From IMG/VR virus record IMGVR_UViG_2541047764_000008: a stretch of 32,225 nucleotides of DNA, one strand, 5' to 3'. Position numbers and translations under genes: made by a program. Positions 1 to 25,447 of the stretch are shown one piece after another (position 1 is the stretch's first letter; each line of letters begins with the position of its first letter). The DNA comes from a virus (Duplodnaviria; Heunggongvirae; Uroviricota; Caudoviricetes). Below the pieces are notes generated by a model. It was not told the DNA's origin. It made no database searches and saw nothing but the letters and a program-made list of their open reading frames with translations.

Positions 1-17
1 AACACGAGCAAACAGAT

Positions 18-45
18 AAAAAAGGGCCAGCCAATTGGCCAGCCC
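18..45 (-). terminator. Rho-independent terminator candidate downstream of the ATPase/HNH cassette
   Basis: On the minus strand, 24-45 reads GGGCUGGCC-AAUU-GGCUGGCCC (9-bp stem with two G-U wobbles) followed by a U6 run (plus-strand A run 18-23). It lies about 180 bp past the stop of the 230..1108 ORF. Confidence 0.5.
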
Positions 46-229
46 TTCTTAACAGGATGTCGCTTAAGCGAAACCTTAGTTAAGACGCTCCTAATCAAAA
101 CTCATAGAAAGCACACATTTACCATATAAAACAATTAGTTAATTTAATTTTTAATGCAGTGAATTGCAATGTTATGCAAGCTCTGCCGCCATACTGCCGC
201 CACTTTAGATTTACTCAAAAATCCCATAC

Positions 230-1108
230 TTACTCATAGGTAGCAGATGAAATTTCAATCATTGACGATCTTTCAAAAATTTGCTTACCATTATTAAGAA
301 ATGTAGGGGACGAGAGAAGGGCATCGAGAGTCAACCATTGCCATAGATCGATCGTATACCTAGATTTAGGATAATCCTTGGATCGGGCATTCAGTAAGTC
401 ACGTTTAATCTCTATCATTTCATGCAATGATAAATTTTTAAAAGTAGCATTCCTGACCAATTCCTTAACTAAGCTAATTGCCTTCGCACTGAACGTGTCT
501 AGTATGCCGAATTTTTTAACATGAAATAACACTCTTTTATATTCAACTGTATTTTTCTCATAGTTAATTTGAAAATAAATTACATTATCCATTTCAGAAT
601 ATACAGCCGTTAACCAATTGTAATTATAGAACTGATCAAATAACGGATGAATTAATTGATTTTCTTTTGAAAGAGAGAAATATTTAGATTTCATTCTATT
701 GCAGTAATCACAAGCAGGGATAAGATTATTATAGGATATAGAAAGGGATGGAAAATCTTCTTTTGGTAAAAAATGATCTAACGTACTGGCTTCACCAATG
801 TGACATAACAAACATTTTTTATTCGGGCTTCGGCGAAGTAATTCATCATAATATTTTCTAGGCTGTGTTCTTTTTTTTGACAGCCTTTCATTATAAAGCC
901 TTAATAACTCAGACGAATCAAAACCTGCCGTCTTTGATATATCTTTAAATTCATAAAGCAGTCCATAAATTGCATGAATTTTGTAAATCTTGTGACAAGC
1001 CCTCAAGTATTCCCCTTGATCCTTTTCTACTTGAGTAAAGTCTCTATTGCGCCGCCCTACTACGCAACTCCTATATACATCATCAAATTTAACATGCATC
1101 CTCTTCAC
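230..1108 (-). CDS. HNH-nuclease-domain protein, second gene of a two-gene ATPase + HNH cassette (Septu PtuB-like architecture)
   Basis: 292-aa ORF with an HNH-type motif at residues ~99-140 (CLLCH...DHFLP...NNLIPACDYCNRMK). Its GTG start overlaps the upstream ATPase stop as GTGA; an ATG at 1099 is an alternative start. Markedly AT-rich by eye. Confidence 0.6.
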   Translation of the reverse strand: MKRMHVKFDDVYRSCVVGRRNRDFTQVEKDQGEYLRACHKIYKIHAIYGLLYEFKDISKTAGFDSSELLRLYNERLSKKRTQPRKYYDELLRRSPNKKCLLCHIGEASTLDHFLPKEDFPSLSISYNNLIPACDYCNRMKSKYFSLSKENQLIHPLFDQFYNYNWLTAVYSEMDNVIYFQINYEKNTVEYKRVLFHVKKFGILDTFSAKAISLVKELVRNATFKNLSLHEMIEIKRDLLNARSKDYPKSRYTIDLWQWLTLDALLSSPTFLNNGKQIFERSSMIEISSATYE

Positions 1109-2583
1109 CCTTTATTTTTTATAGCAGAGTAAACAACAGCACGCCCTTCCAAGCCGATCTGATTATTATATGCATTAAACACTGCACCAGCACTTGTATA
1201 TTTTTTGGAATCCTCCTCCAATAGAGAATAGAAGCCTGACTTTCGCATATCAAGGTTAAAAACTTCAGATGTAATTTCTCCTACCCCCTCGCCGAATGTT
1301 TCTATTGTTGGCCGCTGAAATTCAGCCTCTATATCGCCTGAGCGAAACATTTTCCAAATACAAGCTTTAGGTGTTTCTTGAAGAACTACTGGAGAGTGAG
1401 TGGCAATCACAGCCATCCCATTGTTTTCTTTCAGTATCTCAGACAACGTTCTAATAAATGCGGAAAGTAAAGGAGGATGCAAATGATTCTCTGGCTCATC
1501 GAAGATACATATTGTTTTATTTTCTATTAACTCAATAACATGAGTAATGTAGTATATTACCGCCGCATGCCCTGAGCTCAACGATTTAAAGATGGTTGTT
1601 GATGCATGTGTAAACTCCTCTTGGCTAACAGTGATGAGATTTGAAAGTCCTAAATCCTTAAAATTCACATCAACTTCTAAAGTCTCTATTATTCTAGTCC
1701 ATGTTCCTTTTTTTATTTCAGATCCATATATGCAATTATATAATGACTTGGAAAAATCATTAGCCAAATCATTGTTTATATCCTTTAGTTCTCCGCTACC
1801 TTGTTTATAGAGACCAATATATTTTTTCTTTGTTTGAGTTGTGCTAAACCTAACATCATTAAAATCAACATTTTCAAAAGGTTTATCAAAAACACTTAAT
1901 GAAAAATACAATAACAAACCAAAATCATAAACTGAGACAGGATCACCATTTATCTTTGTTACAACATAATTACTTTTATCGATATTTTCAACAATTGTTC
2001 TTAGTAAATGGCTTTTCCCTACCCCATTACGCCCAATGATTACATGGACATTTTTTGGCGGTTTAGAATCAGATTCCACGATAAAATCCGGCGAAACACC
2101 ATTCTCATAATTAACACGAAAACCGAAATGTCTCAATGAAACGCCAGACTGCAAAATGTCTCTAAACTGCATAACACTTGATATACTTACATATCTAGTG
2201 AGTGAGTCAACAAATACACTTTCATCCCTTACATCTTCAAAAATATTTTCATCATAAACGATATCTCTCAACCTAGTTAAAAGTTTCACCCGAAATTCTT
2301 GAGGCAAATTCTTTAAGGCCGAATAGTATTCTGGAGATTGTCCAAGTGAAAAATAATCATTAGCCAGACTATCAAACTCTGCATCTAACTTTTTATATGT
2401 ATGAACTGATTTCTCTTGTCTCTTAAATCCTATTTTAACCTCTCCAACCTTTACAACATTACTACCATGAGAATAATGTAGTAAAAATGAAGTTTCAAAT
2501 GAAAAATCATTCCAATTGGTTATTGGAGTTAGATATATTATAAATGTCGAATTTGATTGAGGAGGGCCAATTTTTATAAACAT
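1105..2583 (-). CDS. ABC-type (AAA_15/21-like) ATPase with ~180-aa N-terminal extension, first gene of the ATPase + HNH cassette (OLD/PtuA/GajA-like ATPase fold)
   Basis: 492-aa ORF with Walker A GRNGVGKS (184-191), signature-like LSSGH (335-339), Walker B ICIFDEPE (358-365) and H-loop ATHSP (393-397). GGAG sits 6 nt upstream of the ATG. The start is only 37 bp downstream of the int stop on the same strand. AT-rich by eye. Confidence 0.65.
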   Translation of the reverse strand: MFIKIGPPQSNSTFIIYLTPITNWNDFSFETSFLLHYSHGSNVVKVGEVKIGFKRQEKSVHTYKKLDAEFDSLANDYFSLGQSPEYYSALKNLPQEFRVKLLTRLRDIVYDENIFEDVRDESVFVDSLTRYVSISSVMQFRDILQSGVSLRHFGFRVNYENGVSPDFIVESDSKPPKNVHVIIGRNGVGKSHLLRTIVENIDKSNYVVTKINGDPVSVYDFGLLLYFSLSVFDKPFENVDFNDVRFSTTQTKKKYIGLYKQGSGELKDINNDLANDFSKSLYNCIYGSEIKKGTWTRIIETLEVDVNFKDLGLSNLITVSQEEFTHASTTIFKSLSSGHAAVIYYITHVIELIENKTICIFDEPENHLHPPLLSAFIRTLSEILKENNGMAVIATHSPVVLQETPKACIWKMFRSGDIEAEFQRPTIETFGEGVGEITSEVFNLDMRKSGFYSLLEEDSKKYTSAGAVFNAYNNQIGLEGRAVVYSAIKNKG

Positions 2584-2620
2584 ACTTGCTCCTTATAAGC
2601 CAAACCGTAACAAATTACAC

Positions 2621-3643
2621 TTAGAGTAAATTACTTAGAGGATTTAGTGTAACCGCATCCTCTAAATGCTCGGGAGAAAAGTGGGCATATCTCATCGTTT
2701 CACGAATATTAGCGTGGCCAAGAATGCGTTGCAATACAAGGATGTTCCCACCATTCATCATGAAATGAGACGCGAAGGTATGTCGTAATACGTGGGTCTT
2801 TTGCCCTTCAGCCAACTCAATAGATGTCAAAGCTAGCATCTTTTTAAAGTCTTGGTAGCAGGATTTAAACATCCTTCCTTGACGTGTGGATAGTTCGTCA
2901 TAGAGCCATTTAGGAATCGGAACAGTTCTATTCTTCTTACCTTTGGTTTTGGTGAAGGTCAGCTTGTAGGGTGAGAGTTGAGCGCGTGTAAGCCTCTCGG
3001 CTTCTCCCCATCGTGCACCGGTTGCCAAACATACCTTAACAATCATCGTAAGATTTTCTTTGCCATATTGTTCACAGGCTCGGAACAGCTCCGGGAGCTG
3101 AGACAAAGTTAGCCAGGACATTTCTTTCTCAGCTTCTTTGAATACGCGAATCCCGTCCAGTGGATTGGGTAAACTCCACTCCCCTAATCGTCGCAGTTCA
3201 TTGAACACTGCTTCGAGGTATTGCTGCTCGCGATTGACAGTTATAGGTTTGGCGATCCACTTCGCCGGGTCTTTGTGATAGCCGTTGTCTATTTCGCCAC
3301 GTAATCGACGGTCACGGTAATGAGCCCAATCTTTAGCGGTAAGACGAGATGCAATAGGGTCGCCCAACCCGTTACATACGATTTGAAGCTTTGCCAACCG
3401 CGACTTACTGGCTACTAACGCCTGACCGTGCAAATTGTGCCAAAGCTGAATAATCTCACTTAAGCGTCGGCGGTCTTCTTTCTTGCCGAGCCACGGCTTA
3501 TCTTCACTCTCGCTTTTGGTAAATGCTTCGAATGCCTCGGCCTCACCTTTGGTATTGAATTGACGACGTATACGCCGCCCTTCCCGGCCATTTGGATAAA
3601 GCTCACATAACCATTTACCATTTTTTTGCTTACTTACTGTCAT
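2621..3643 (-). CDS. int: Tyrosine integrase (P2/186 Int family)
   Basis: 340-aa ORF; the C-terminus carries the catalytic-region signature HVLRHTFASHF...LGHANIRETMRYAHF typical of tyrosine recombinases. It sits downstream of the repressor on the same strand, as in P2/186. Confidence 0.9.
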   Translation of the reverse strand: MTVSKQKNGKWLCELYPNGREGRRIRRQFNTKGEAEAFEAFTKSESEDKPWLGKKEDRRRLSEIIQLWHNLHGQALVASKSRLAKLQIVCNGLGDPIASRLTAKDWAHYRDRRLRGEIDNGYHKDPAKWIAKPITVNREQQYLEAVFNELRRLGEWSLPNPLDGIRVFKEAEKEMSWLTLSQLPELFRACEQYGKENLTMIVKVCLATGARWGEAERLTRAQLSPYKLTFTKTKGKKNRTVPIPKWLYDELSTRQGRMFKSCYQDFKKMLALTSIELAEGQKTHVLRHTFASHFMMNGGNILVLQRILGHANIRETMRYAHFSPEHLEDAVTLNPLSNLL

Positions 3644-3666: not shown

Positions 3667-4005
3667 TTATTCACACAACGCTATAGCTTCACTGAAAATC
3701 GGGCCAATATCAGCGCTTTCTAATGAATCGTTAGGGTCTTTTTTAAGAACTTCTTTTAAATCTCGCCCTTCCATTTTTCCTGATTTGACGGCGTTTTTAG
3801 CCATACCGCTTAGGGGGTATCGTTCATCCGTATCAATGTCATAAACAAAAACGTAGTGACTATTTACACAAGATACCTTTGCATGCTCAAAGGTCAGCGG
3901 CCATTTATCACCAAAAGATTTAATATCAATCTCTTTGAACTTTTCAGCGGCAAAGGTTGAGGAAGAGAGTGCAATACAGATTATTCCAAATAAAAACTTT
4001 TTCAT
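3667..4005 (-). CDS. Small secreted/periplasmic protein (moron) between repressor and integrase
   Basis: 112-aa ORF with a classical N-terminal signal peptide (MKKFLFGIICIALSSSTFA followed by AEK) and two Cys in the mature part. AT-rich relative to flanking int and cI. No family assigned. Confidence 0.55.
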   Translation of the reverse strand: MKKFLFGIICIALSSSTFAAEKFKEIDIKSFGDKWPLTFEHAKVSCVNSHYVFVYDIDTDERYPLSGMAKNAVKSGKMEGRDLKEVLKKDPNDSLESADIGPIFSEAIALCE

Positions 4006-4014
4006 TACTGCTCC

Positions 4015-4878
4015 TTAAACATGCTTTTCCAAGGTAAAGATAACTGCACCTGATGGTGTGATATCAGAGAGATTACATTCAAACTCAGCAGACTTATTTG
4101 ATAGCCTGACCTTTCCACCTGGCATTCTGATTACGTCAAAAATATCGAGCGCACCATCAATGCCAATAAGCCAACGACCATTTCCTATCTTTGAGTTAGA
4201 ACAATCAACAAGCCAAGATGCGCCAACTCCATCAATAAAGACCAACTCATCAATGTTTGCAGGAACCATTGAAAGGTCTGGAGTCCAACGCCCAATATCT
4301 TTTAACTCACCAGCTTCAAGACGACATTTTCTTACTGTTAAGGCGTTAAGTGATTCACCCTCTTTGCTGTCTCGCATTTGGCCTTTTCCTGTAGATAGCC
4401 ACTCTAACGATACGCCAGTATCGAGTGCGCAGGTCACAACCACATCGCCAGGGAAGAAGTCACGCCTAACCCAAGTGCTAATAGTACCGGAAGAAATACC
4501 TAATAAATCACCAAGCTCTTTTTGCATCGTAAAACCATAAGCATCCAGAATCCTACGCAAAACGGTTTTACCGCCGTTCGTCATAATCTCGTCATAAAGC
4601 TCTTTGCCTTTTAACTTGCAACCGACTCGCCCATGATTTGCATTTGCAAGCTCACCACTTACAAGCCAATTAATATCAGCGCCCGTGTCAAGACAACACC
4701 TAACTATGATGTTGCCAGGTATTGCATCGCGTTGAACCCAGCCGCTAACGCTATGTTTCGCGATTCCTAGCAGGTCAGCCAAATCCTTTTGCATCTTGAC
4801 GCCATAGGCTGACATTAAGCGCTCTAATACGCCATTTGACGCACCTATGCGCCACTGAACATCAAGCTCAGAACTCAT
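4015..4878 (-). CDS. cI: CI-like immunity repressor with tandemly duplicated N-terminal HTH domain
   Basis: 287-aa ORF. Residues ~17-75 and ~107-165 are an obvious internal repeat (LERLMSAYGVKMQKDLADLLGIAKHSVSGWVQRDAIPGNIIVRCCLDTGADINWLVSGE versus LRRILDAYGFTMQKELGDLLGISSGTISTWVRRDFFPGDVVVTCALDTGVSLEWLSTGK), each resembling the 186-type CI HTH module, followed by a C-terminal domain. It is divergent from the early operon. Confidence 0.7.
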   Translation of the reverse strand: MSSELDVQWRIGASNGVLERLMSAYGVKMQKDLADLLGIAKHSVSGWVQRDAIPGNIIVRCCLDTGADINWLVSGELANANHGRVGCKLKGKELYDEIMTNGGKTVLRRILDAYGFTMQKELGDLLGISSGTISTWVRRDFFPGDVVVTCALDTGVSLEWLSTGKGQMRDSKEGESLNALTVRKCRLEAGELKDIGRWTPDLSMVPANIDELVFIDGVGASWLVDCSNSKIGNGRWLIGIDGALDIFDVIRMPGGKVRLSNKSAEFECNLSDITPSGAVIFTLEKHV

Positions 4879-10130: not shown

Positions 10131-10272
10131 TCTGTTCCGTAGAGATTGGCCCAAACCGGCACTATTAAAGCCGGTTTTCGTATGTCCAATCTAAAGAATG
10201 GGGGCTGACATCCCACCATCAGATTTGTGTTATTTTAGTGCTACTCATTCGTCATTAGACATTGTAAGGGCA

Positions 10273-10989
10273 ATGTATATGAAACCAAGCACACACTGCG
10301 TTTATTGCGGTGTTCTCATGAATAAGGTTGAAAATCACCCCCACTGCCGCTCAGTTGAACACATGATTCCGCAAGTTTCAGTCTCCATTCATAGAACCAA
10401 CGGCGAAGGTGATTTCTATGTATGCAAAAAGTGCAATGGCGATAAAAGCCGAATTGACGAGGTGTTAGGTGTCATTTGCCGCATGGTAGGAGAGCACTCA
10501 ACAGGCAGCTTTGATGCTGTTAATAAATTCCATAATGCGCTTAAAAGAAAAGACTCGAAATTTCGTGAAGCATTCCAGAGTGTTAGGCATACAAAAAAAG
10601 GTGCGCAGATAACATTACCCCTAAATGGTAGGGAGATTTACCAATACGGCACCTGGTTAGCCAAGGGAGTATTTTTCTTAGAGTATGGGCAATTGTTGAC
10701 TGTAGATAAATTAATTTGGATTAATATCGTTCGCCACGATGAAGTAATGGCTATTAAAGAAATGTATAGAAATGAACGTGGCTCTGAGGCATTTGATGAT
10801 TTATCGAAGAATAGCAACATTCCAAATATTAATGGCGAGTCGTTTCTGATTGTTGGCCAGGATGCCCGAGAAATGTTTATTTGCTTCAATAGAGTAATGA
10901 TGTTTCATATAAAGATACTGGATAGAACGTTTATTAATCAAAAAAAATGCAAAAAAGCCCTACTCAATCTGGAAAAAAGGGTTCGATAA
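10273..10989 (+). CDS. HNH-nuclease-domain protein with uncharacterised ~170-aa C-terminal domain (moron in the A-to-cos accessory hotspot)
   Basis: HNH motif at the N-terminus (CVYCG...HPHCRSVEHMIPQ...FYVCKKCNGDKS). AT-rich by eye and sharply different from flanking phage DNA. Start uncertain: ATG at 10273 or 10279; the track's longest form starts at 10198. Confidence 0.55.
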   Translation: MYMKPSTHCVYCGVLMNKVENHPHCRSVEHMIPQVSVSIHRTNGEGDFYVCKKCNGDKSRIDEVLGVICRMVGEHSTGSFDAVNKFHNALKRKDSKFREAFQSVRHTKKGAQITLPLNGREIYQYGTWLAKGVFFLEYGQLLTVDKLIWINIVRHDEVMAIKEMYRNERGSEAFDDLSKNSNIPNINGESFLIVGQDAREMFICFNRVMMFHIKILDRTFINQKKCKKALLNLEKRVR

Positions 10990-11153: not shown

Positions 11154-11357
11154 TGCGCGCCAGCGGTGGTGCGTATTATTAAAAATTATCGTCTGAGAAC
11201 GTCGTGACGGCGCTGTAGTGGCCGGGTGTGATCGTGGGCGCGTGGTGCGTCTGTGGCGTGGTGCTAAAGGATGGGATCAGTTGCACAATTTTACGGTTTC
11301 GCTTTGGCTAATATCCATATTGAGACTTTATGTTCCCCACAACAGTTGGAGGCTTTA

Positions 11358-11582
11358 ATGGATAACTATCATATTACAAAAGATGGCGATAAGTGGAAGT
11401 TGCAAAAAGAGGGCAATGACCGCCCTAGCAAGACCGCGCCCACAAAGGCCGAGCTGATTAAAACAACATCTGAGTTTATGTCGAACAAAACAGGCTCGGT
11501 CAAAATTCACAAGGAAGATGGGAAAATTCAGGAAGAACGCACTTATCAGAGAAAAGATGATCCTAAAAAGTCTAAGGGCTAA
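11358..11582 (+). CDS. Small conserved hypothetical protein (DUF2188-like)
   Basis: 74 aa from the ATG at 11358 with a GGAGG RBS 5 nt upstream. The pattern KDGDKWKL...G...IHKEDGKIQEERTY...DP resembles small DUF2188-type proteins (from memory). Confidence 0.4.
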   Translation: MDNYHITKDGDKWKLQKEGNDRPSKTAPTKAELIKTTSEFMSNKTGSVKIHKEDGKIQEERTYQRKDDPKKSKG

Positions 11583-22336: not shown

Positions 22337-22937
22337 CCGGCTATTACCCGTTGGCTCGTCGCCGCTGGAGGTCGCCGCCGCCGCTGCGTTCTCTGAGATT
22401 CAGCGCGTGCCGGTACCGCTGCGCACCCTGTGGAACTGGCGCACCTGCCCGGTAAAGCTGCTGCCGTATCTGGCGTGGGCGCTGTCGGTCGACAGGTGGG
22501 ATGAGAAATGGCCGGAGGCGACAAAGCGCAACGTCTGCGCGTCCTCGTTTTTCGTCCATCAGCACAAAGGCACCATCAGCGCATTGCGTCGGGTCGTCGA
22601 GCCGCTCGGCTTTCTGATTGAGGTGCGCGAGTGGTGGCAACTCGACGAGGAGCCAGGCACATTCCGCCTCGTTGTTGGCGTCCTCGACAGCGGCATCACT
22701 GACGAAATGTATCAGGAGCTTGAGCGCCTGATTGAAGACGCCAAACCGGCAAGTCGCCACCTGACCGGGCTGGCTATCAGTCTGAGCTCGACCGGCGAAC
22801 TGTATGTCGGCGCGGGATGCTATCACGGCGACGCGCTGACTGTTTACCCCTACACCCCCGAGGAGATTGTCGTCGGCGGTGAATATTACCCGGCCTCGGC
22901 CATCCATTTGATTGATAACCTGAGAGTGAACGCATGA
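22329..22937 (+). CDS. I: Baseplate/tail protein (P2 gpI-like)
   Basis: 202 aa; overlaps the J stop and H start; in the P2 I position. Confidence 0.8.
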   Translation: MNDRLLPVGSSPLEVAAAAAFSEIQRVPVPLRTLWNWRTCPVKLLPYLAWALSVDRWDEKWPEATKRNVCASSFFVHQHKGTISALRRVVEPLGFLIEVREWWQLDEEPGTFRLVVGVLDSGITDEMYQELERLIEDAKPASRHLTGLAISLSSTGELYVGAGCYHGDALTVYPYTPEEIVVGGEYYPASAIHLIDNLRVNA

Positions 22938-23914
22938 CCGCAAAATATTTTGCCATTCTGACCAATCAGGGCGCGGCGCGGCTGGCGAACGCGGCGGCAC
23001 TCGGTACCAAACTCAACCTGACGCAGATGGCCGTCGGTGATGCGAATGGTACGTTGCCGACCCCTGATCCGGCGCAGACGAAGCTCATTAACCAGAAACG
23101 CATCGCGCCGCTGAACCTGCTGACCGTTGACCCGGCCAATACCAGTCAGATTATCGCGGAACAGATTATTCCCGAGAATGAAGGTGGTTTCTGGATCCGC
23201 GAGATTGGTCTCTATGACGATGATGGTATTCTGATTGCCGTGGCGAACTGTCCGGAGACCTACAAGCCACAACTGCAGGAGGGAAGCGGTCGCACGCAGA
23301 CCATTCGCATGATTCTGATTGTGTCGAGCACATCGGCAATCACCCTGAAAATCGACCCGGCAGTCGTGCTGGCAACGCGCCAGTATGTCGACGACAAGAT
23401 TATCGAGGTGAAAGGATATGCTGATGACCTGATGAAAAAACATGTTGAGGCCGCCAATCCACACAAGCAGTACCCGTTAATCGCTAATGCTCTGAAAGAA
23501 ATGGTTGACGCGGGACTGGCCGGCGACGTTCTTAAAAACCTTGGTTTGGGAGAAGCGGCAAAACGGGATGTGGGGACAGGGGAAAATCAGATACCGGACA
23601 TGGCCTCTTTTGCCAGTGGTGATGGATGGATGAAATTACCCAACGGGAAAATCCTGCAATATGGTCGTGGTGCGGTTACGCCGACATTATCGACGCAAAC
23701 AATGAGAATTACATTCAGCATCCCTTTCCCCAAAAAAGCGGACTGCGCCATGCTTACTCATTCTGGTGATGGCGGTGCGCCTTTAGGCGCTGGGCGAGGG
23801 TTCGTGATGACTGCAGAAGGCCCAACGTTAACCGGCTTTAATTCTGCTTACAGAACGTCATCAACCAGCGACACGGTATCGATGAATTACAGTTGGTGGG
23901 CTGTTGGTGAGTAA
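22934..23914 (+). CDS. H: Tail fibre protein (P2 gpH-like) with short, switchable C-terminal receptor-binding region
   Basis: 326 aa. The N-terminal ~200 aa (MTAKYFAILTNQGAARLANAA...) is typical of the conserved P2-family fibre N-terminus. The C-terminal part begins at an invertase crossover-like site (23529-23554). Confidence 0.85.
   Translation: MTAKYFAILTNQGAARLANAAALGTKLNLTQMAVGDANGTLPTPDPAQTKLINQKRIAPLNLLTVDPANTSQIIAEQIIPENEGGFWIREIGLYDDDGILIAVANCPETYKPQLQEGSGRTQTIRMILIVSSTSAITLKIDPAVVLATRQYVDDKIIEVKGYADDLMKKHVEAANPHKQYPLIANALKEMVDAGLAGDVLKNLGLGEAAKRDVGTGENQIPDMASFASGDGWMKLPNGKILQYGRGAVTPTLSTQTMRITFSIPFPKKADCAMLTHSGDGGAPLGAGRGFVMTAEGPTLTGFNSAYRTSSTSDTVSMNYSWWAVGE
23529..23554. promoter_or_regulatory. 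hix/gix-like inversion crossover site (left), inside the tail-fibre gene
   Basis: TTCTTAAAAACC-TT-GGTTTGGGAGAA; the left half matches the Hin hix half-site TTCTTGAAAACC. The right half GGTTTGGGAGAA is identical to the inverted copy at 25439-25464. Confidence 0.65.
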
Positions 23915-23925
23915 TTTTATTCAGG

Positions 23926-24378
23926 GTGATTTATATGAACGAATATGTTTATAGCGCAAGGCATAATGCTTTTTTCCCTGTGGATATGATTGATAAATAT
24001 AAATCAGAGGGATGGGATTTATCAGACGCTAAGGAAGTAAATCAAAATATTATCAGTGAGTTTATGGCTGAACCGCCACAAGGAAAAATCCGTATTGCCG
24101 GAGATGATGGGCTGCCTGCGTGGGCAGATATTCCTCCACCCACGCATGAAGAGCTTATTGAAATTACTGAATCAGAAAGACAGCTACTAATTAACCAGGC
24201 CAACGAATACATGAACAGTAAGCAATGGCCCGGTAAAGCCGCTATTGGTCGTCTGAAAGGTGAGGAACTGGCGCAATATAATTTGTGGCTGGATTATCTG
24301 GATGCACTGGAGCTGGTTGATACCTCCAGTGCGCCAGATATTGAATGGCCTACGCCTCCGGCAGTTCAGGCCAGATGA
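23926..24378 (+). CDS. G: Tail fibre assembly protein (P2 gpG-like)
   Basis: 150 aa, AT-rich, with a Tfa-type C-terminus (...APDIEWPTPP...); directly downstream of H. Confidence 0.8.
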   Translation: MIYMNEYVYSARHNAFFPVDMIDKYKSEGWDLSDAKEVNQNIISEFMAEPPQGKIRIAGDDGLPAWADIPPPTHEELIEITESERQLLINQANEYMNSKQWPGKAAIGRLKGEELAQYNLWLDYLDALELVDTSSAPDIEWPTPPAVQAR

Positions 24379-24952
24379 CATCCGGCGCGGTGCTGGTATC
24401 TGTTGCCGTCACCGCGTCAATGTAATCCAGCACAGCGTTAAGTCTGGTTGTTTCTGCCTGCGTCAGTTTACGTCCGGCCTGCAATTTCAGTTGAATCAGA
24501 CTAATGGAAGCCATTGCAGCATCAATCAGTGACTGGCGCTGTGCTTCTGCCGCGTCTACTGCGGCGCTATGCTGTGCCTCAGTATCGGTCACCCATTTCT
24601 CACCATCCCATTTATCGTATGGCGTTAATGGGGCGATAGTGGTTGTATTTTCAGGGTAATCACCCGGAGCGGTGATTTCTTTTGATTCTCCTGTTTTGGT
24701 GCTATAGACCGTTTCACCGCGATGGTCTGGCACATATTCCCATGAATTTAAATCTACAGAGCGACAGATTGCATAACCAGCTTTATGTGTACCTGGTGCA
24801 TCCAGACAGGAACATGCCGGGATACCGACTCCGACAGCGAGATATTCAGTTGATGTAGAAATATATTCCCGCGTTTCGCCATCATAGTTATGTACGATGA
24901 TTTCCCCATCATTTAAAGCGTAACCGTCTTTTCCCAAAATAGCCTGTTCCAT
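24350..24952 (-). CDS. Alternative tail fibre assembly protein (U'-like) in the invertible segment
   Basis: 200-aa ORF on the opposite strand, convergent with G; the C-terminus (...TAPDVIWPELPEA) parallels the gpG C-terminus. Confidence 0.7.
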   Translation of the reverse strand: MEQAILGKDGYALNDGEIIVHNYDGETREYISTSTEYLAVGVGIPACSCLDAPGTHKAGYAICRSVDLNSWEYVPDHRGETVYSTKTGESKEITAPGDYPENTTTIAPLTPYDKWDGEKWVTDTEAQHSAAVDAAEAQRQSLIDAAMASISLIQLKLQAGRKLTQAETTRLNAVLDYIDAVTATDTSTAPDVIWPELPEA

Positions 24953-25447
24953 TTATGCAGCCCTCACAATGTAGTTAAATGCAATGTTTCGCGGGCTACC
25001 ATCACCGGCGCCGGAACTGACATGATTTGTTCTATCCATTCGTTTACTGTCATTTGTTGTTCCACTCCCATCCTTCCACGAATACAATAACCCGCCATCG
25101 CCAATGCTCAACTGCACCGCAAATACGGATGATGTACCTAATTCACCAACATCTCTAGCCATGAGTGGGTTCCCTGTCCATCCATGCATTTCATGGTTAT
25201 GTTCAAGGATAGATGCTGCCTGACTTGAAAGCAGCAGTCTCGCGGAATCAACACCTCGCCCATCATCCCACCCGCGAATAAACTCACCGCGCAAATCCGG
25301 TAATTTTAACTTTGGGTAAGCCTTTGCCAGTTTTGGGTACTCTTCGGCAGAAAAAGGTGCACCGTTGCATTTCAGCCAGCCTGTTGGTGGTGTGGCTGAA
25401 GGCCACGGAACAGGCACACCAACGGGTAACGCTGAGCCTTCTCCCAA
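24953..25447 (-). CDS. Alternative tail-fibre C-terminal receptor-binding segment (Sv'-like), promoterless in current orientation
   Basis: The open frame begins at the right crossover site with no ATG (the track uses a TTG). Inversion at the core dinucleotide would fuse H in frame: ...KNLGLGE-GSALPVGVPVPWPS... The PxPWP..GW...G..F..YP.L motif is typical of Mu/P1-type fibre variable parts. Confidence 0.65.
   Translation of the reverse strand: MGEGSALPVGVPVPWPSATPPTGWLKCNGAPFSAEEYPKLAKAYPKLKLPDLRGEFIRGWDDGRGVDSARLLLSSQAASILEHNHEMHGWTGNPLMARDVGELGTSSVFAVQLSIGDGGLLYSWKDGSGTTNDSKRMDRTNHVSSGAGDGSPRNIAFNYIVRAA

Follow-up and report, generated by a model that had tools for sequence, protein, structure and literature searches.

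An Ea59/Ea31-like (PDC-M01) ATPase–HNH nuclease gene pair at the int–att junction of a 186/P2-like Escherichia coli prophage, a plausible anti-phage defence cassette

What is the AT-rich pair of genes that lies directly downstream of int in the viral record IMGVR_UViG_2541047764_000008, and could it protect a lysogen from other phages? The window analysed here is the whole 32,225-nucleotide stretch of this Caudoviricetes sequence, and the cassette (positions 230-2583, minus strand) consists of a gene encoding an ATP-binding cassette (ABC)-type ATPase of 492 aa (1105-2583), followed by a gene encoding an HNH nuclease of 292 aa that starts with GTG (230-1108). An initial annotation, made from the nucleotide sequence alone, had singled out this pair as a candidate anti-phage defence system reminiscent of Septu and had allowed that it may be an undescribed variant. 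Judging from homology, the cassette is instead a member of a catalogued family, that of the phage lambda proteins Ea59 and Ea31, which corresponds to the PADLOC candidate system PDC-M01, and not a new system. An anti-phage defence function is plausible by analogy with related ATPase–nuclease systems.

The gene structure initially described was recovered in full. The two open reading frames (ORFs) are coupled through four shared nucleotides, GTGA, at 1105-1108. The ATPase carries the Walker A motif GRNGVGKS at residues 184-191 (with K190), LSSGH at 335-339, the Walker B motif FDEPE at 361-365 and ATHSP at 394-398 (H-loop H396), in an ABC core that begins at about residue 150, and the HNH protein carries CLLCH (99-103), DH (111-112), N128 and CDYCN (133-137), which form a CxxC…DH…N…CxxCN zinc-finger HNH core (residues 99-137) accompanied by family-specific N- and C-terminal regions. 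In the family alignments these motifs, in both proteins, occupy invariant or near-invariant columns. Pfam assigned AAA_21 (66 bits, cut-off 27) and AAA_15 (55 bits, cut-off 32) to the ATPase, and HNH (25.8 bits, cut-off 21.4) to its partner. In public records the ATG at 1099 is called as the start of the HNH gene, giving a protein of 289 aa, but the GTG start is to be favoured because a 4-nt overlap between the two genes is the norm among the relatives examined (lambda, Dickeya and Salmonella) and because the alignment of the PDC-M01B hidden Markov model begins at residue 3. The pronounced AT-richness of the cassette relative to the phage backbone was also borne out, given that the GC content of 206-2629 is 33.5% against 52.8% in the remaining window; this is the lowest-GC span of 2.4 kb in the window, the runner-up having 43.4%.

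The family assignment of the ATPase (Ea59-like, PDC-M01A) draws on PADLOC, Pfam, lambda Ea59, an AlphaFold2 (AF2) model and PDB folds, and that of the HNH protein (Ea31-like, PDC-M01B) on PADLOC, Pfam, PHROG and lambda Ea31. The ATPase matched the PADLOC model PDC-M01A (PDLC04235) over residues 9-491 (model positions 13-505 of 510, E 2.2e-158), and the HNH protein matched PDC-M01B (PDLC04252) over residues 3-292 (model positions 3-294 of 294, E 7.7e-142), with PDC-M01B accounting for all of the best 25 of its 64 PADLOC matches. Since both proteins match end to end and their genes are adjacent, PADLOC would call the locus PDC-M01. A translated search of phage genomes aligned the ATPase with lambda Ea59 at 37% identity over 95% of its length (residues 24-491, E 9e-93) and the HNH protein with lambda Ea31 at 32% identity over the core (residues 67-224, E 5e-20), and the lambda proteins themselves match the same PADLOC models as the window pair. 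In addition, the ATPase falls in PHROG 8066 (unknown function) over its full length (E 8e-199) and the HNH protein in PHROG 10378 (HNH endonuclease, E 1e-105). These matches leave no room for the suggestion of an undescribed variant. The lambda genes ea59-ea31 share with the window pair their order and 4-nt overlap, and both pairs adjoin the int/att (attachment) end of a temperate phage. More than 4,000 homologues of the Ea59-type ATPase were scored.

How close, then, is this family to Septu? As in Septu, a gene for an ATPase of the ABC/SMC (structural maintenance of chromosomes)-like class precedes a gene for an HNH nuclease, and the likeness noticed initially was upheld by a PADLOC match and by the PDB, in which PtuA provided the best fold. 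The PADLOC PtuA model PDLC00282 aligned with the ATPase over residues 16-490, N-terminal domain included (E 1e-133), and among solved structures the PtuA proteins of Septu and type I-A retrons come closest in fold and sequence, with ABC transporters, OLD and AriA ranking below them. One could therefore regard the cassette as a canonical Septu whose ATPase has an N-terminal extension, and expect it to assemble 6:2 and to act on tRNA-Tyr or nick DNA as E. coli Septu does; besides the PtuA model and the PtuA structures, the coincidence of PDC-M01 and Septu calls on the same proteins in a survey of Bacillus cereus speaks for this. We consider it very improbable, because the NCBIfam and TIGRFAM-type scores lie far below their cut-offs: 46.8 bits against a cut-off of 500 for PtuA (NF041760), 15.9 against 150 for PtuB (NF041761) and 17.2 against 52 for TIGR02646. 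In the PDB, PtuA chains align with no more of the ATPase than the half that holds Walker B and the H-loop (E 5e-11), the PtuB chains match the HNH protein with E values of 0.02-0.7, and the Walker A lysine is K190 as opposed to K43. The catalytic residues of E. coli Septu, K43 in the Walker A motif of PtuA and H75 and N91 in PtuB, correspond to K190 in the ATPase and to H112 and N128 in its 292-aa HNH partner. That partner differs from the Septu PtuB of about 216 aa in its flanking domains and is unrelated to it outside the catalytic core, and the ATPase differs from PtuA in having an extra N-terminal domain of 150 aa. On these sequence grounds the cassette family is most probably a distant, Septu-like sister family and not canonical Septu, and the shared PDC-M01 and Septu calls fit a sister family at the edge of the reach of the Septu models. 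Unlike type I-A retrons and Septu type II, the insert at 204-2632 contains no reverse transcriptase ORF in the ORF list.

Other systems that combine an ATPase of the AAA_15/AAA_21 class with a nuclease, namely PARIS, OLD and Gabija, have a nuclease of the TOPRIM or DUF4435 type, in contrast to the HNH nuclease on a separate protein found here, and the cassette matches to AriA and OLD are weak and confined to the Walker B/H-loop half. PARIS (AriA/AriB) was rejected because the partner is HNH and not DUF4435/TOPRIM, the AriA models matching only ATPase residues 252-401. OLD and the Gabija protein GajA were rejected given that neither Pfam nor PADLOC gave a TOPRIM match and the OLD structure 6p74 gave only a weak core match, and AbiL was rejected on the type of its partner and on partial matches.

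The domain that sets the ATPase apart occupies residues 1-150 (2134-2583, minus strand), and consists of a beta-sheet followed by a helical bundle. It had been described as an N-terminal domain that could not be assigned, and it indeed has no structural match in the PDB; it is, however, the hallmark of the whole Ea59 family and not a peculiarity of this locus. The AF2 model, built on a 75-sequence alignment, has a predicted local distance difference test score (pLDDT) of 88.7 and a predicted template-modelling score (pTM) of 0.89, and in the same 75 sequences the invariant residues of the domain include W24, D26, F33, L73, S79 and Y87. A profile search with the domain against 1.84 billion representatives returned 2,421 clusters at 50% identity; in all of the best 150 of these the domain lies at the N-terminus of the protein, and no other fusion partner was seen among them. 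The full-length proteins measure approximately 490-560 aa, and the shorter matches look like contig-end fragments. Foldseek returned PtuA chains of type I-A retron and Septu complexes as the best PDB matches of the ATPase model, with E values between 3e-9 and 1e-7. We propose that the N-terminal domain may act as a sensor or regulatory module.

Where the cassette sits was the next question that the locus raised, since the initial annotation had left undecided whether it lies inside the prophage or on the host side of attL. The gene order of the window is that of a 186/P2-like prophage (int, DUF2511, 186-type CI, apl/cro, cII, replication gene A and then the portal-to-tail genes), and positions 1-91 hardly differ from the stretch of E. 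coli K-12 that comprises the yfiB-rplS intergenic region and the final codons of rplS. This end of the window has a match in every one of 5,426 complete E. coli genomes. A three-way alignment of the window with the lysogen E. coli 81EVA and with K-12 indicated that identity with K-12 stops at about position 91. Positions 1-75 are host DNA from the yfiB-rplS intergenic region and hold a bidirectional intrinsic terminator of rplS/yfiB, whose stem is at 19-50, and the 3' end of host rplS covers 76-91 (minus strand, stop codon at 76-78); this is the last stretch common to uninfected E. coli, and it contains or adjoins the att core. A phage att arm follows at 92-205. In 81EVA, whose prophage lacks the cassette and is integrated at the same site, this arm is kept and int joins it directly, and the arm is likewise joined directly to int in the other best-matching related E. 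coli prophages. Because the att arm and the host rplS terminator lie beyond the cassette, as seen against these cassette-free relatives, the alignment places the cassette inside the prophage, with the att arm separating it from the host DNA.

The point of insertion can be read from the end of int. The last codons of the 81EVA int encode …LYVGDNMAAEVA before the stop codon and are positioned within the att arm; the C-terminus of the 81EVA integrase reads …TLNPLSLYVGDNMAAEVA and that of the window integrase …TLNPLSNLL, each followed by a stop. The tyrosine integrase gene of the window (2621-3643, minus strand; Pfam Int_N and Phage_integrase) takes its last three codons, NLL and the stop, from the insert, and an orphaned 3' remnant of the ancestral int, GGSMAAELA and a stop, survives at 174-203 (minus strand), where the same bases are the final int codons in 81EVA. 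Given that the window int has acquired a new ending and that the remnant persists in the arm, the alignment indicates that the cassette entered int at its final codons, as AT-rich cargo of about 2.43 kb (approximately 204-2632, minus strand); among the prophages examined, the closest relatives lack this cargo. The insertion has spared the att arm as well as the catalytic part of int. An imperfect repeat, ACTT(T)AGA, occurs at both ends of the insert (202-209 and 2633-2639) and may be a microhomology footprint or a chance occurrence.

The terminator at which the cassette had been said to end, originally placed at 18-45, is real, a terminator scan giving a minus-strand stem that runs from 50 to 19; it does not adjoin the cassette, lying about 180 nt past the HNH stop codon, and it is the terminator of host rplS/yfiB, since window 1-91 is bacterial DNA. 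No second copy of the att core was found in the window, which ends in gene D, before attR. Scans for RNA genes detected no tRNA, no tmRNA and no Rfam family at threshold in the window, so the att site is not a tRNA gene and a retron non-coding RNA is absent. The comparison of related prophages that had been proposed as a check thus gave cassette-free relatives at the same site, and the position agrees with the int-att interval that the searched text of a survey of P2-like phages reports as a minor defence hotspot, holding 3% of P2 defence systems. That text names neither Septu nor PDC systems. The main P2 hotspot, between gpA and the portal gene, holds cargo other than the cassette in this window.

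Is the cassette peculiar to this prophage? At megablast sensitivity it is absent from all 5,426 complete RefSeq E. coli genomes, and an identical cassette is present at the same site, the prophage int-att junction, in other E. coli assemblies. In nine of the nine contexts examined the A and B genes are adjacent, and the two proteins diverge together as a unit, with ATPase/HNH identities of 90/84, 57/45, 55/48 and 37/32%. In Cronobacter turicensis (locus L008, 7568-10560) a decayed prophage occupies the same rplS site, and all that is left of it is the 3' part of int together with the cassette and the att arm; this remnant is 86% identical at the nucleotide level to window 3024-18 and adjoins an insertion sequence (IS) element, so that here the cassette has outlived its phage. 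The homologous pairs of Dickeya and Salmonella lie within two integrative and conjugative elements (ICEs), the Citrobacter pair is located at the cargo edge of a P2-like prophage and the Agrobacterium pair adjoins IS66. In Vibrio cholerae (locus L014, 187-12676) the pair has a type I restriction–modification (R-M) system and a YgjP-like gene on one side and, next to smpB, a tyrosine integrase on the other. These contexts suggest that the cassette is a self-contained, horizontally mobile accessory module, and by association they suggest a resemblance to known defence cargo. Mobility, like family identity, domain make-up and insertion site, is directly supported by the comparisons described above.

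Two observations on these contexts may be recorded in their own right. The Vibrio cholerae locus has the setting of a defence island, in which the pair again stands at the integrase end of the element. In E. coli CP189652.1 (locus L004, 3632-5140), which has an identical cassette, a group II intron carrying an ORF with RVT_1 and GIIM lies within int, at about window 2863-2869, and no int is called there.

The same mobility could be that of a selfish nuclease or an addiction module, which would spread itself, or kill cells that lose it and so stabilise the prophage, with no antiviral role. In keeping with this, the HNH protein scores equally against generic homing-type HNH proteins and PtuB, the insert sits precisely in the 3' end of int with an imperfect repeat of 7-8 nt at each end, the Pfam AAA_21 label reads 'AbiEii toxin, type IV TA' (toxin–antitoxin), and the cassette has been kept in the decayed Cronobacter prophage. 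We nevertheless think this role very improbable, given that the nine contexts have no target gene in common, that no antitoxin-like third gene is present and that the flanking repeat is short enough to have arisen by chance. Moreover, homing HNH enzymes are as a rule encoded by free-standing genes; here the nuclease diverges in step with a 492-aa ATPase that is strictly conserved.

When would the pair be expressed? The cassette begins 37 nt past the int stop on the same strand, as first reported, and the spacer between int and the ATPase gene (2584-2620, minus strand, 37 nt) provides an AAGGAG ribosome-binding site at 2589-2594; a sequence scan of these 37 nt predicted neither a strong promoter nor a terminator. 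Upstream of int (all on the minus strand) there are the DUF2511/YebY gene (3667-4005, 112 aa, Pfam DUF2511) and the 186-type CI repressor gene (4015-4878, Pfam Phage_CI_repr and Phage_CI_C), and in the ORF list cI, DUF2511, int, ATPase and HNH are spaced by 9-37 nt. The switch is of the 186-type face-to-face kind. In phage 186, cI and int are co-transcribed. Because no strong promoter or terminator is predicted after int, the spacing is operon-like and only 37 nt are available upstream, read-through from the lysogenic promoter of the switch would be the likeliest source of expression, and from the gene layout the cassette would most likely be expressed in the lysogen as the end of a presumed cI-DUF2511-int operon.

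The initial annotation had gone further and treated expression in the lysogen as what a defence system should have. For the family as a whole this rule fails, because the lambda homologues lie across attP from int and are N-dependent early lytic 'Ea' proteins transcribed from pL. Lambda ea59 and ea31 belong to the b region; they follow int on its own strand with attP in between, an arrangement that puts them at the far end of the prophage, and ea47 comes after them. In the window, by contrast, the cassette has int on one side and the att arm on the other and is laid out like a segment of a lysogenic operon, and the two pairs have diverged considerably in sequence. For the same reasons of position and early lytic expression the family may serve the phage in lytic growth, as an accessory nuclease that attacks host or competitor nucleic acids or DNA intermediates and does not protect the lysogen; it might, for example, exclude co-infecting phages while the burst is under way, shut off the host or counter a host defence. 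The cassette would still lie downstream of int in the excised circular phage, and annotators call lambda ea59 an 'ATP-dependent endonuclease'. An endonuclease of lambda studied by Benchimol et al. in 1982 has reportedly been assigned to ea31/ea59. PMC5241400 cites 1982 work on a lambda endonuclease. A lytic role of this kind is nonetheless unlikely for the present cassette, which is on the int side of att in the orientation of the lysogenic operon; its homologues occur in ICEs, alongside type I R-M genes and in the relic of a prophage that has lost the capacity for lytic growth, and lambda devoid of ea59 and ea31 grows normally. Of the alternatives considered this lytic role ranks first, ahead of a selfish or addiction role and of canonical Septu.

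How might the pair act, if it is a defence module? In the PtuAB pairs of Septu and retrons the HNH subunit is bound to an oligomer of the ATPase, the binding of ATP keeps the nuclease in check, and protection requires both activities; the substrates include tRNA-Tyr, single-stranded DNA and plasmid DNA. We favour, with moderate confidence, the view that the cassette is an ATPase-gated HNH module of the Septu-sister family Ea59/Ea31 (PDC-M01) that was acquired by the prophage, that would be expressed by lysogenic read-through and whose nuclease would block invaders. On this model, a stand-alone ATPase–nuclease module would have been taken up as AT-rich cargo by a 186/P2-like prophage residing at the 3' end of rplS, and the pair would be transcribed by read-through in the lysogen and translated as coupled genes. 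By analogy with Septu, an oligomer of the ABC ATPase would hold its HNH partner in check until a signal from an invading phage or other foreign DNA released or activated the nuclease; the signal would probably be sensed by way of the N-terminal domain, the nucleotide state of the ATPase or both. The active enzyme would then cut nucleic acid and block replication of the invader, so that competing phages would be excluded or their infection would be abortive. Complex formation, trigger, substrate and the defence phenotype of this cassette are thus steps that we infer from the related systems.

Several observations weigh against this model. The Foldseek template-modelling (TM) scores are only 0.28-0.33, and the ATPase resembles PtuA in its ABC core alone, which also argues against canonical Septu; the HNH family profile scores better against a generic HNH structure (4h9d, E 6e-4) than against PtuB chains (E 0.018). 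The lambda genes are sited for lytic and not for lysogenic expression, and they are dispensable and have been assigned no role. A Pseudomonas homologue lies in an ordinary chromosomal neighbourhood, and the searched literature contained no report linking Ea59/Ea31 or PDC-M01 to a tested defence phenotype. PDC-M01 is itself an unpublished candidate whose label supplies neither a mechanism nor a phenotype. It follows that the full-length match, N-terminal domain included, that could have tied the pair to a characterised family was obtained, but with a family that is catalogued and not experimentally characterised.

Should the defence model hold, this would be another case of a temperate phage arming its host, and the cassette would offer an entry point native to E. 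coli into the large set of ATPase homologues scored here, two textbook lambda genes of unknown role included. It is conceivable, though we put it forward only tentatively, that the Ea59/Ea31 modules are an immunity or exclusion system in their own right, an ATPase-gated HNH nuclease akin to Septu in the ABC core alone, with a new N-terminal sensor domain for invaders, which temperate phages and ICEs would carry at their int/att ends against rivals; lambda ea59 and ea31, whose role has been open since the 1970s, would then at last have a function. The three corrections made here, that the pair is already catalogued as PDC-M01, that it is a sister of Septu and not Septu itself, and that it lies inside the prophage at the minor int-att cargo site, would hardly surprise a specialist.

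There are further features of the prophage that deserve mention. The DUF2511/YebY protein encoded between cI and int has a signal-peptide-like N-terminus and is conserved in related prophages (81EVA); its gene may be a lysogenic-conversion gene. In the main P2 hotspot, which has replication gene A on one side and the portal gene on the other, an ORF of 263 aa and about 36% GC (10198-10989, plus strand) carries a CxxC…H…CxxCN HNH-like motif, gives weak PADLOC matches to PtuB (E 7e-5) and falls in PHROG 31193 (unknown function) but in none of the Pfam families; a lone nuclease, it may be a candidate for defence. The same hotspot contains, just before the portal gene, a gene for a DUF2188 protein of 103 aa (11271-11582, plus strand), which matches the PADLOC candidate PDC-S16 (E 1.4e-14). 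Finally, a tail-fibre gene (22934-23914) is followed by an assembly gene (23926-24378), both on the plus strand, and a second assembly gene (24350-24952) and a second tail-collar fragment (24953-25447) lie in the opposite orientation on the minus strand, a layout (23926-25447) that suggests an invertible or alternative host-range segment.

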